64,000 bases of DNA from assembly GCF_057098645.1 (NCBI RefSeq), contig NZ_CM169472.1. One strand, written 5' to 3'. Position 1 is the first letter of the stretch. The number at the start of each line of letters is the position of its first letter. A program made the position numbers. Below are positions 41,201-44,200 of the stretch, piece after piece.

Positions 41201-44200
41201 GGCAACACACTGAAAGCGGGGGCGGTGGCGGGCATTAGCCATCTGCGTAATCCGGTTCTTGCCGCCCGGCTGGTGATGGAGCAAAGCCCGCATGTGATGA
41301 TGATTGGCGAAGGGGCAGAAAATTTTGCGTTTGCTCATGGCATGGAGAGCGTCTCGCCGGAGATTTTCTCCACGCCTTTGCGTTATGAACAACTACTGGC
41401 AGCGCGCGAGGAAGGGGCAACAGTCCTCGACCATAGCGGTGCGCCACTGGATGAAAAACAGAAAATGGGCACCGTGGGGGCCGTGGCGTTGGATTTAGAC
41501 GGCAATCTGGCGGCAGCCACGTCCACGGGCGGAATGACCAATAAATTACCCGGACGAGTTGGCGATAGTCCCTTAGTGGGGGCCGGATGCTACGCCAATA
41601 ACGCCAGTGTGGCGGTTTCTTGTACCGGCACGGGCGAAGTCTTCATCCGCGCGCTGGCGGCATATGACATCGCCGCGTTAATGGATTACGGCGGATTAAG
41701 TCTCGCGGAAGCCTGCGAGCGGGTAGTAATGGAAAAACTCCCTGCGCTTGGCGGTAGCGGTGGCTTAATCGCTATCGACCATGAAGGGAATGTCGCGCTA
41801 CCGTTTAACACCGAAGGAATGTATCGCGCCTGGGGCTACGCAGGCGATACGCCAACCACCGGTATCTACCGTGAAAAAGGGGACGCCGTTGCCACACAGT
41901 GATGAACTTGATGCCGGTAATGTGCTGGCGGTTGAAAATCTTAATATTGCCTTTATGCAGGACCAGCAGAAAATAGCTGCGGTCCGCAATCTCTCTTTTA
42001 GCCTGCAACGCGGTGAGACGCTGGCAATTGTTGGCGAATCCGGCTCCGGTAAGTCAGTGACTGCGCTGGCATTGATGCGTCTGTTGGAACAGGCGGGCGG
42101 TTTAGTACAGTGCGATAAAATGCTGTTGCGGCGGCGCAGTCGTGAAGTGATTGAACTTAGCGAGCAGAGCGCTGCACAAATGCGTCATGTGCGCGGTGCG
42201 GATATGGCGATGATATTTCAGGAGCCGATGACATCGCTGAACCCAGTATTTACTGTGGGTGAACAGATTGCCGAATCAATTCGTCTGCATCAAAACGCCA
42301 GTCGTGAAGAAGCGATGGTCGAGGCGAAGCGGATGCTGGATCAGGTACGCATTCCGGAGGCACAAACCATTCTTTCACGTTATCCGCATCAACTCTCTGG
42401 CGGGATGCGCCAGCGAGTGATGATTGCGATGGCGCTGTCATGCCGCCCGGCGGTGCTGATTGCCGATGAGCCAACCACCGCGCTGGATGTCACTATTCAG
42501 GCGCAGATCCTGCAATTAATCAAAGTATTGCAAAAAGAGATGTCGATGGGCGTTATCTTTATCACTCACGATATGGGCGTGGTGGCAGAGATTGCCGATC
42601 GGGTACTGGTGATGTATCAGGGCGAGGCGGTGGAAACGGGTACCGTAGAACAGATTTTTCATGCACCGCAACATCCTTACACCCGTGCGCTGTTAGCTGC
42701 TGTTCCGCAACTTGGTGCGATGAAAGGGTTAGATTATCCCCGACGTTTCCCATTGATATCGCTTGAACATCCAGCGAAACAGGCCCCCCCCATCGAGCAG
42801 AAAACGGTGGTGGATGGCGAACCTGTTTTACGGGTGCGTAATCTGGTCACCCGTTTCCCTTTGCGCAGCGGTTTGTTGAATCGCGTAACGCGGGAAGTGC
42901 ATGCCGTTGAGAAAGTCAGTTTTGATCTCTGGCCTGGCGAAACGCTATCGCTGGTGGGCGAGTCTGGCAGCGGTAAATCCACTACCGGGCGGGCGTTGCT
43001 GCGCCTGGTCGAATCGCAGGGCGGCGAAATTATCTTTAACGGTCAGCGAATCGATACCTTGTCACCCGGCAAACTTCAGGCATTACGCCGGGATATTCAG
43101 TTTATTTTTCAGGACCCTTACGCTTCGCTGGACCCACGTCAGACCATCGGTGATTCGATTATCGAACCGCTGCGTGTACACGGTTTATTGCCAGGTAAAG
43201 ACGCGGCTGCACGCGTTGCGTGGTTGCTGGAGCGCGTGGGCCTGTTACCTGAACATGCCTGGCGTTACCCGCATGAGTTTTCCGGCGGTCAGCGCCAGCG
43301 CATCTGCATTGCTCGCGCGTTGGCATTGAATCCAAAAGTGATCATTGCCGACGAAGCCGTTTCGGCGCTGGATGTTTCTATTCGCGGGCAGATTATCAAC
43401 TTGTTGCTCGATCTCCAGCGTGATTTCGGCATTGCGTATCTGTTTATCTCCCACGATATGGCCGTGGTAGAGCGGATTAGTCATCGTGTGGCGGTGATGT
43501 ATCTCGGGCAAATTGTTGAAATTGGCCCACGGCGCGCGGTTTTTGAAAATCCGCAGCATCCTTATACGCGTAAATTACTGGCGGCAGTTCCGGTCGCTGA
43601 ACCGTCCCGACAACGACCGCAGCGTGTACTGCTGTCGGACGATCTTCCCAGCAATATTCATCTGCGTGGCGAAGAGGTGGCAGCCGTCTCGTTGCAATGC
43701 GTCGGGCCGGGGCATTACGTCGCACAACCACAATCAGAATACGCATTCATGCGTAGATAACATTCAGGCGGAGAATAAAATGGCAAGAGCTGTACACCGT
43801 AGTGGGTTAGTGGCGCTGGGCATTGCGACAGCGTTGATGGCATCTTGTGCATTCGCTGCCAAAGATGTGGTGGTGGCGGTAGGATCGAATTTCACCACGC
43901 TCGATCCGTATGACGCGAATGACACGTTATCTCAGGCCGTAGCGAAATCGTTTTACCAGGGGCTGTTCGGTCTGGATAAAGAGATGAAACTGAAAAACGT
44001 GCTGGCGGAGAGTTATACCGTTTCCGATGACGGCATTACTTACACCGTGAAATTGCGGGAAGGAATTAAATTCCAGGATGGCACCGATTTCAACGCCGCG
44101 GCGGTGAAAGCGAATCTGGACCGGGCCAGCGATCCGGCGAATCATCTTAAACGCTATAACCTGTATAAGAATATTGCTAAAACGGAAGCGATCGATCCGA

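Follow-up and report, generated by a model that had tools for sequence, protein, structure and literature searches.

Genes and signals at the iaaA/gsiA junction

The window analyzed here is a stretch of 64,000 nucleotides from contig NZ_CM169472.1 (RefSeq assembly GCF_057098645.1), and positions are numbered from its first letter; all features described below lie on its plus strand. The gene iaaA (40937..41902) encodes an isoaspartyl/beta-aspartyl peptidase of 321 aa and runs from ATG 40937 to the stop codon TGA 41900-41902. It is followed by gsiA (41889..43760), which encodes the 623-aa fused double ABC ATPase of the glutathione importer GsiABCD. Both products match NCBIfam equivalog profiles along their full length: IaaA scores 707.3 bits with NF007589 (cutoff 567, aligned over 1-321 of 321), and GsiA scores 1377.3 bits with NF007613 (cutoff 1077, profile positions 1-623 of 623). 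In the RefSeq record of E. coli O145 strain RM9872, gsiB lies directly downstream of gsiA, and in K-12 gsiB, gsiC and gsiD are found downstream.

The reading frame of gsiA is +1 relative to that of iaaA, and its 623-codon open reading frame ends at 43760. The start codon is a TTG at 41889..41891, which is annotated as such in NZ_CP028379.1 and NC_000913.3 and lies inside the 3' end of iaaA. The resulting overlap of 14 nt (TTGCCACACAGTGA, 41889..41902) is read in both open reading frames; the UGA of iaaA, whose first base is 11 nt downstream of that of the TTG, falls in gsiA codons 4-5. A Shine-Dalgarno (SD) element, AAAGGGGA at 41876..41883 with the core AAGGGG at 41877-41882, is contained within the iaaA coding sequence. 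The first three bases of this element (41876..41878) form the AAA codon of IaaA Lys314; in other Enterobacteriaceae genera, iaaA stops at this position with TAA.

The open frame of gsiA extends back to 41769, i.e. 40 codons upstream of the TTG, and it contains several other candidate start codons. These are ATG 41781, ATG 41790, GTG 41871..41873 (six codons upstream of the TTG), GTG 41922..41924 (codon 12) and ATG 41955 (codon 23). A previous sequence-only reading of this DNA correctly placed an in-frame TTG before the conserved GsiA N-terminus, but it named ATG 41781 as the only other in-frame ATG, which overlooked ATG 41790 and ATG 41955. With the two GTG codons included, ATG 41781 is one of five alternatives rather than the sole one.

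In a consensus scan, the only sigma-70-like match between 40700 and 42100 was TTTACA-17-TATATT at 40830..40858, upstream of iaaA. This site is a candidate operon promoter, although the match is weak evidence given that 1 was found versus 1.1 expected in shuffled sequences. The same scan found no promoter-like site inside iaaA, and an internal gsiA promoter within iaaA was rejected on this basis. RNA structure over the gsiA ribosome-binding site was also considered as an explanation and rejected: the minimum free energy of a single-sequence fold of the 120-nt junction (41829-41948) is not unusual relative to shuffled sequences (z = -0.98), and RNAalifold found zero consensus pairs in 20 junction sequences.

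Annotation of gsiA in reference genomes and public records

The window comes from an O145-type E. coli, and over a stretch of 801 nt spanning the junction it matches strain RM9872 at 100% identity. Both this stretch and the 81-nt junction itself are present at an identity of at least 95% in 5425 of 5426 complete E. coli genomes. RefSeq annotates iaaA at 932266..933231 and gsiA at 933218..935089 in RM9872, with the same TTG start and the same 14-nt overlap. The corresponding coordinates in K-12 MG1655 (NC_000913.3, b0828/b0829) are 866568..867533 for iaaA and 867520..869391 for gsiA (NP_415350.2). The K-12 junction shares its genes, TTG start and 14-nt overlap with the window; the two differ by one base in the 81-nt junction and by two substitutions in GsiA (99.7% identity). 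The overlap is annotated identically in three more E. coli genomes, which were picked among the most divergent hits. The TTG start and the overlap are already known, in that they are recorded in reference annotations, and the overlap deduced from the sequence alone (41889-41902, common to both open reading frames) is the one that RefSeq gives.

Public records are less uniform. An exact-sequence look-up of public databases returned five different N-termini for the identical K-12 gsiA gene. The 623-aa form starting at TTG 41889 is found in at least 1000 contigs. A 612-aa form from GTG 41922 is found in 12 contigs, including BAA35517.2 of K-12 W3110, a 659-aa form from ATG 41781 in 6 contigs, a 629-aa form from GTG 41871 in 3 contigs and a 601-aa form from ATG 41955 in 3 contigs. 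The ambiguity sensed in the sequence-only reading is real, yet it is settled in favor of TTG in the reference annotation, and the comparative data described below agree.

The GsiA profile points to the same codon. When the open reading frame is translated from ATG 41781, positions 1-623 of NF007613 align to residues 37-659, i.e. from the TTG codon onward; the profile was probably built from sequences annotated with the TTG start, and the profile and the RefSeq starts are not mutually independent. Alignments with solved homologues begin at about residue 9-13 of GsiA, which leaves its first 11 residues outside the ABC fold. This probably explains why the 612-aa call once looked acceptable.

Conservation of the TTG start

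The SD core AAGGGG is located 6 nt upstream of the TTG, which places an SD element 5-10 nt upstream of an NTG codon, as is looked for in a non-ATG start. The predicted pairing of the 15 nt upstream of the TTG (GTGAAAAAGGGGACG) with the 16S anti-SD sequence is -7.8 kcal/mol, the third best value among 173 ATG, GTG and TTG triplets on the plus strand of iaaA and gsiA. The corresponding values for alternative starts are -3.0 kcal/mol for GTG 41871, -2.3 kcal/mol for GTG 41922 and 0.2 kcal/mol for ATG 41790.

One scan for GsiA in a species-representative genome collection returned 80 loci, Salmonella not being among them. In most of these loci iaaA is directly upstream of gsiA, in Enterobacterales and Burkholderiales alike. 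The junction was aligned for 20 sequences from about 13 enterobacterial genera. In the column homologous to the TTG, the bases TG are invariant and the codon is TTG, ATG or GTG in all 20 sequences. It is TTG in Escherichia, Citrobacter, Superficieibacter and Pseudocitrobacter, ATG in Leclercia, Enterobacter sp. Ag1 and Cedecea, and GTG in Lelliottia, Enterobacter MGH24, Phytobacter, Siccibacter, Pluralibacter gergoviae and one metagenome-assembled genome (MAG). A start codon is thus present at this column in every sequence, and conservation of the protein sets in at this point, with P-H-S-[DEH]-E-L following the start column in most of the aligned sequences. A purine-rich GGAG/GGGG block at the SD position is also conserved across genera. 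None of ATG 41790, GTG 41871, GTG 41922 and ATG 41955 is conserved as a start. An alignment of orthologs had been suggested as a check on the sequence-only reading, and the 20 of 20 NTG codons support the proposed start.

In-frame stop codons occur one to six codons upstream of the start column in Lelliottia, Enterobacter MGH24, Enterobacter Ag1, Cedecea and Siccibacter, and no longer GsiA form is therefore possible in these organisms. For a divergent Escherichia locus (L003), no ATG, GTG or TTG other than the start TTG itself is listed in the gsiA frame between the upstream stop and 15 codons past that TTG.

The pattern of substitutions in seven Escherichia and Citrobacter loci provides a further view of the junction. 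Of the 34 variable sites that precede the TTG, 28 are at third codon positions of iaaA. When E. coli is compared with E. albertii or Citrobacter over this region, the peptide in the gsiA frame is 56-64% identical versus 92-97% in the iaaA frame. Past the iaaA stop, it is the third positions of gsiA codons that vary most (30 of 59 sites), and the 14-nt overlap has zero variable sites among the seven loci. The coding phase switches from the iaaA to the gsiA frame at the junction. The placement of the start at TTG 41889 by the sequence-only reading agrees with RefSeq (RM9872 and K-12), with the NF007613 alignment and with the comparison across genera, and judged from this sequence evidence we consider it very probable that gsiA translation starts there.

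Alternative starts and published start-site data

The most visible competitor is GTG 41922, from which GsiA might be made mainly or additionally in the 612-aa form, leaving the TTG as a leucine-like codon in an untranslated or iaaA-only stretch. This form is annotated in K-12 W3110 and several other GenBank records (the 12 contigs above), it would be structurally complete because the ABC ATPase fold begins at about residue 9-13, and an initiation signal at the TTG was not seen in vitro (INRI-seq, below). In E. coli CDE6306 there is moreover a 1-nt deletion between the TTG and codon 12, which would be harmless only if GTG were usable. Against this, codon 12 is GTA, GTT or GTC in L003, three Citrobacter loci (two of them GTA/GTT), Pseudocitrobacter, Phytobacter and a MAG, and GTG 41922 is for that reason not usable as a start in those loci. 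The GTG/GTA/GTT/GTC variation of this column across species is the pattern of an ordinary Val codon, its SD pairing is weak (see above), and INRI-seq reports no alternative start in gsiA either (PMC9825163 Table S3). The 11 codons preceding it are conserved as protein (PHS[DE]EL) with changes of the synonymous type, and these codons are kept even in genera in which iaaA ends upstream and nothing else constrains them. We consider initiation at GTG 41922 improbable. Less probable still is a start inside iaaA at ATG 41781, ATG 41790 or GTG 41871, giving an extended GsiA of 659, 656 or 629 aa. There is room for such a start in the frame open from 41769, and the 659-aa and 629-aa forms do exist in a few public records. 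However, L003 has no ATG, GTG or TTG among its listed gsiA-frame candidates upstream of the TTG, in-frame stops bar such forms in several genera, and the low peptide identity noted above indicates that purifying selection does not act on the N-terminal extension as read in the gsiA frame. The extension lies outside the GsiA equivalog profile, the SD pairing is weak for ATG 41790 (0.2 kcal/mol) and GTG 41871 (-3.0 kcal/mol), and the codon at GTG 41871 is GCG, GGG or absent in loci L003-L007. A programmed frameshift producing an IaaA-GsiA fusion, which the +1 open frame and the A-rich GAAAAAGGG stretch had brought to mind, was rejected: stops interrupt the open frame in several genera, so that it is not conserved, the extension as read in the gsiA frame is not under selection, and the sequence does not form a canonical slippery heptamer when read in the frame of iaaA.

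In the literature searched, no experiment that maps the GsiA start directly was found. The closest data come from INRI-seq, a cell-free retapamulin profiling assay in which each annotated K-12 start is presented on a synthetic transcript from -30 to +150 (PMC9825163). The annotated gsiA start had 0 CPM in 5 of 5 replicates, with the transcript present at 151 CPM (PMC9825163 Tables S2, S4). In the same data gsiB, gsiC and gsiD were detected and iaaA was essentially silent too, while about 70% of all annotated starts were detected overall (PMC9825163). In vivo Ribo-RET values tabulated in the same publication (PMC9825163) are 0 for the whole gsi cluster, probably reflecting weak expression of the cluster in rich medium. 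In a portion of the deformylation N-terminomics tables (TRAINSPOTTER, PMC13245402), the IaaA N-terminus GKAVIAIHGGAGAISR is listed and GsiA is not among the rows. In INRI-seq, Ribo-RET and this portion of the N-terminomics tables, a signal is absent, as opposed to a signal that contradicts the TTG start. The silence of the isolated gsiA site is consistent with a dependence on upstream translation, and equally with a weak UUG start or with technical dropout, and for us it is no more than a lead.

Origin of the overlap

In most other Enterobacteriaceae genera, IaaA ends with ...G-I-Y-R-E followed by TAA directly before the SD block (GAA TAA GGRG). Within the 20-sequence alignment, GAA-TAA-GG is found in Superficieibacter, Pseudocitrobacter, Leclercia, Lelliottia, Enterobacter, Phytobacter and Siccibacter, and GAA-AAA-GG in Escherichia and Citrobacter. 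In Escherichia and Citrobacter, IaaA runs eight residues further (KGDAVATQ in E. coli) to the next in-frame stop, the TGA inside gsiA. Both the 14-nt overlap and the 8-residue extension of IaaA are thus a consequence of the loss of the stop codon TAA, now AAA at 41876-41878. As read from these alignments, the overlap is a derived state in the Escherichia and Citrobacter loci examined that goes back to one TAA-to-AAA stop loss.

The ancestral type of junction, as found in Leclercia, Lelliottia, Enterobacter, Phytobacter and Siccibacter, has the same gene order, SD block and start column as the window. The GsiA N-terminus is similar too, several of these genera having PHS[DE]EL. Unlike in the window, the iaaA TAA is 9-13 nt before the gsiA start without overlap, and the start codon is mostly ATG or GTG as opposed to TTG. 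Across most Enterobacterales loci, the stop-to-start spacing is -14, -8, -4, -1 or +9 to +13 nt, compared with +31 to +114 nt in most loci of Burkholderiales; the spacing in distant loci is approximate, as the start was chosen there by best SD alone.

Possible coupling of iaaA and gsiA translation

The two genes are co-directional and their stop and start codons are within a few nucleotides of each other (spacing -14 nt), which is the geometry of a translationally coupled pair. As the second gene of the co-directional iaaA-gsiABCD cluster, gsiA would share one transcript with iaaA. The SD in the last iaaA codons would direct initiation at UUG 41889, read as fMet. Following the stop loss, ribosomes translating iaaA read eight more codons and terminate at UGA 41900-41902, where the gsiA start and its SD are covered by the terminating ribosome or lie just behind it. 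Such ribosomes may help gsiA initiation by re-initiating a few nucleotides upstream, by preventing the site from folding, or in both ways; gsiA may also be initiated de novo, directed by its SD. The inhibitory structure that characterizes the RNA-unfolding type of coupling was not found at the gsiA ribosome-binding site.

The coupled overlapping pairs described in a review (NTGA at -4 nt, TGATG at -1 nt and NTGNNTGA at -8 nt; PMC12548453) are co-directional cluster neighbors as iaaA and gsiA are. In these pairs and in iaaA-gsiA alike, the upstream coding sequence contains the downstream start and its SD, and stop and start are no further apart than a ribosome footprint. The iaaA-gsiA pair differs in its spacing of -14 nt, which is not an enriched class and falls in a range where coupling has been observed but was reduced in reporter studies. 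In E. coli, coupling works best at spacings of -4 to +3 nt, and greater overlap lowers it more than greater separation does (PMC12548453). In one systematic study, coupling declines progressively from -4 to -25 nt and is absent at -25 nt (PMC12548453). Since efficiency drops with overlap, the spacing of iaaA and gsiA would be expected to couple only partially.

Translational coupling of iaaA and gsiA, as suggested from the overlap in the sequence-only reading, is plausible on the basis of this geometry, and we put a measurable contribution of iaaA translation at roughly even odds. Nearly as much weight, somewhat short of an even chance, may be given to the view that the TTG is used independently of iaaA translation and that the overlap is a neutral by-product of the stop loss with no coupling function. 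A good SD at ideal spacing would be sufficient for independent initiation, the overlap derives from a single TAA-to-AAA change, the spacing of -14 nt is less favorable for coupling than the ancestral +9 to +13 nt or the common -4 and -1 nt, and the initiation site is free of conserved or unusually stable structure that would need unfolding. This view is harder to reconcile with two observations. The isolated gsiA initiation region is silent in vitro with its transcript present, which fits a dependence on upstream translation without proving it, and most Enterobacterales loci keep the iaaA-gsiA spacing between -14 and +13 nt although the junction has been rearranged repeatedly. In a stronger version of coupling, the gsiA UUG would be nearly inactive for free 30S subunits and would be served almost only by ribosomes that terminate at UGA 41900 and back up about 9 nt to set the UUG in the P site. 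The TAA-to-AAA loss would then have moved termination from upstream to downstream of the start and re-tuned the IaaA:GsiA ratio. We consider this stronger version unlikely.

Implications

A TTG start and a short overlap are ordinary features that would not surprise a specialist, and the finding matters little beyond annotation hygiene. Within that scope, the comparison across genera clearly favors, on sequence grounds, the 623-aa form of GsiA over the four others present in databases. The iaaA/gsiA junction is also a tidy example of a gene overlap arising from the loss of a single stop codon, and the pair is a reasonable test case for translational coupling at a spacing of -14 nt.

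Public records and apparently disrupted copies of gsiA

Public databases give five N-termini for the identical K-12 gsiA sequence (L002, 2021-3892): 659, 629, 623, 612 and 601 aa, equivalent to starts at window positions 41781, 41871, 41889, 41922 and 41955. The 623-aa form with a TTG start is used by MG1655 RefSeq, and the 612-aa form with a GTG start by K-12 W3110 record BAA35517.2.

Comparison of window 41500-42300 with the complete E. coli genome set returned 5426 matching places. Five of these were on plasmid-labelled records, one genome carried two copies of the junction, and one complete genome in the set had no match to this region. 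In E. coli CDE6306 (NZ_CP191552.1, locus L083) codon 11 of gsiA carries a 1-nt deletion, which falls after the TTG start and before the codon-12 GTG (about locus position 367, homologous to window ~41920), and RefSeq flags this gene as frameshifted. If the deletion is real and not a sequencing error, GsiA could be obtained in this strain only via the GTG at codon 12. The gene is apparently disrupted in E. coli strain ExPEC (NZ_CM172609.1, locus L085, 2890-4984), where it is found in two pieces, a 1533-nt CDS named merely as an ABC-domain protein and a partial second CDS.

Cell-free initiation across the cluster

Cell-free initiation data for the cluster region are given in rows b0826-b0832 of PMC9825163 Table S2. 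Clear start peaks were reported for gsiB, gsiC and gsiD, while iaaA, which has an ATG start, and moeB were silent, as was gsiA. Since both iaaA and gsiA are silent, the first two genes of the iaaA-gsiABCD cluster are both poor initiators as isolated fragments. The Shine-Dalgarno element of the window iaaA start is weak (-3.0 kcal/mol).

Origin of the iaaA-gsiA overlap

The iaaA-gsiA order is kept far beyond Enterobacterales, in Burkholderiales loci (L038-L082; Achromobacter, Bordetella, Paraburkholderia, Variovorax and Cupriavidus) with 64-69% GsiA identity, an intergenic spacer of ~30-110 nt, and longer, unrelated GsiA N-termini. Comparison of the junction across genera revealed a C-terminal IaaA tail of eight residues (KGDAVATQ) in Escherichia and Citrobacter, where AAA (window 41876-41878) replaces the iaaA stop TAA. 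The TAA is retained as the stop in Leclercia, Lelliottia, Enterobacter, Phytobacter, Superficieibacter, Pseudocitrobacter and Siccibacter; the site lies near position 2487 in loci L010-L014, L017 and L026. TAA is the ancestral state and AAA the later one, and the iaaA/gsiA overlap arose through this one TAA to AAA change.
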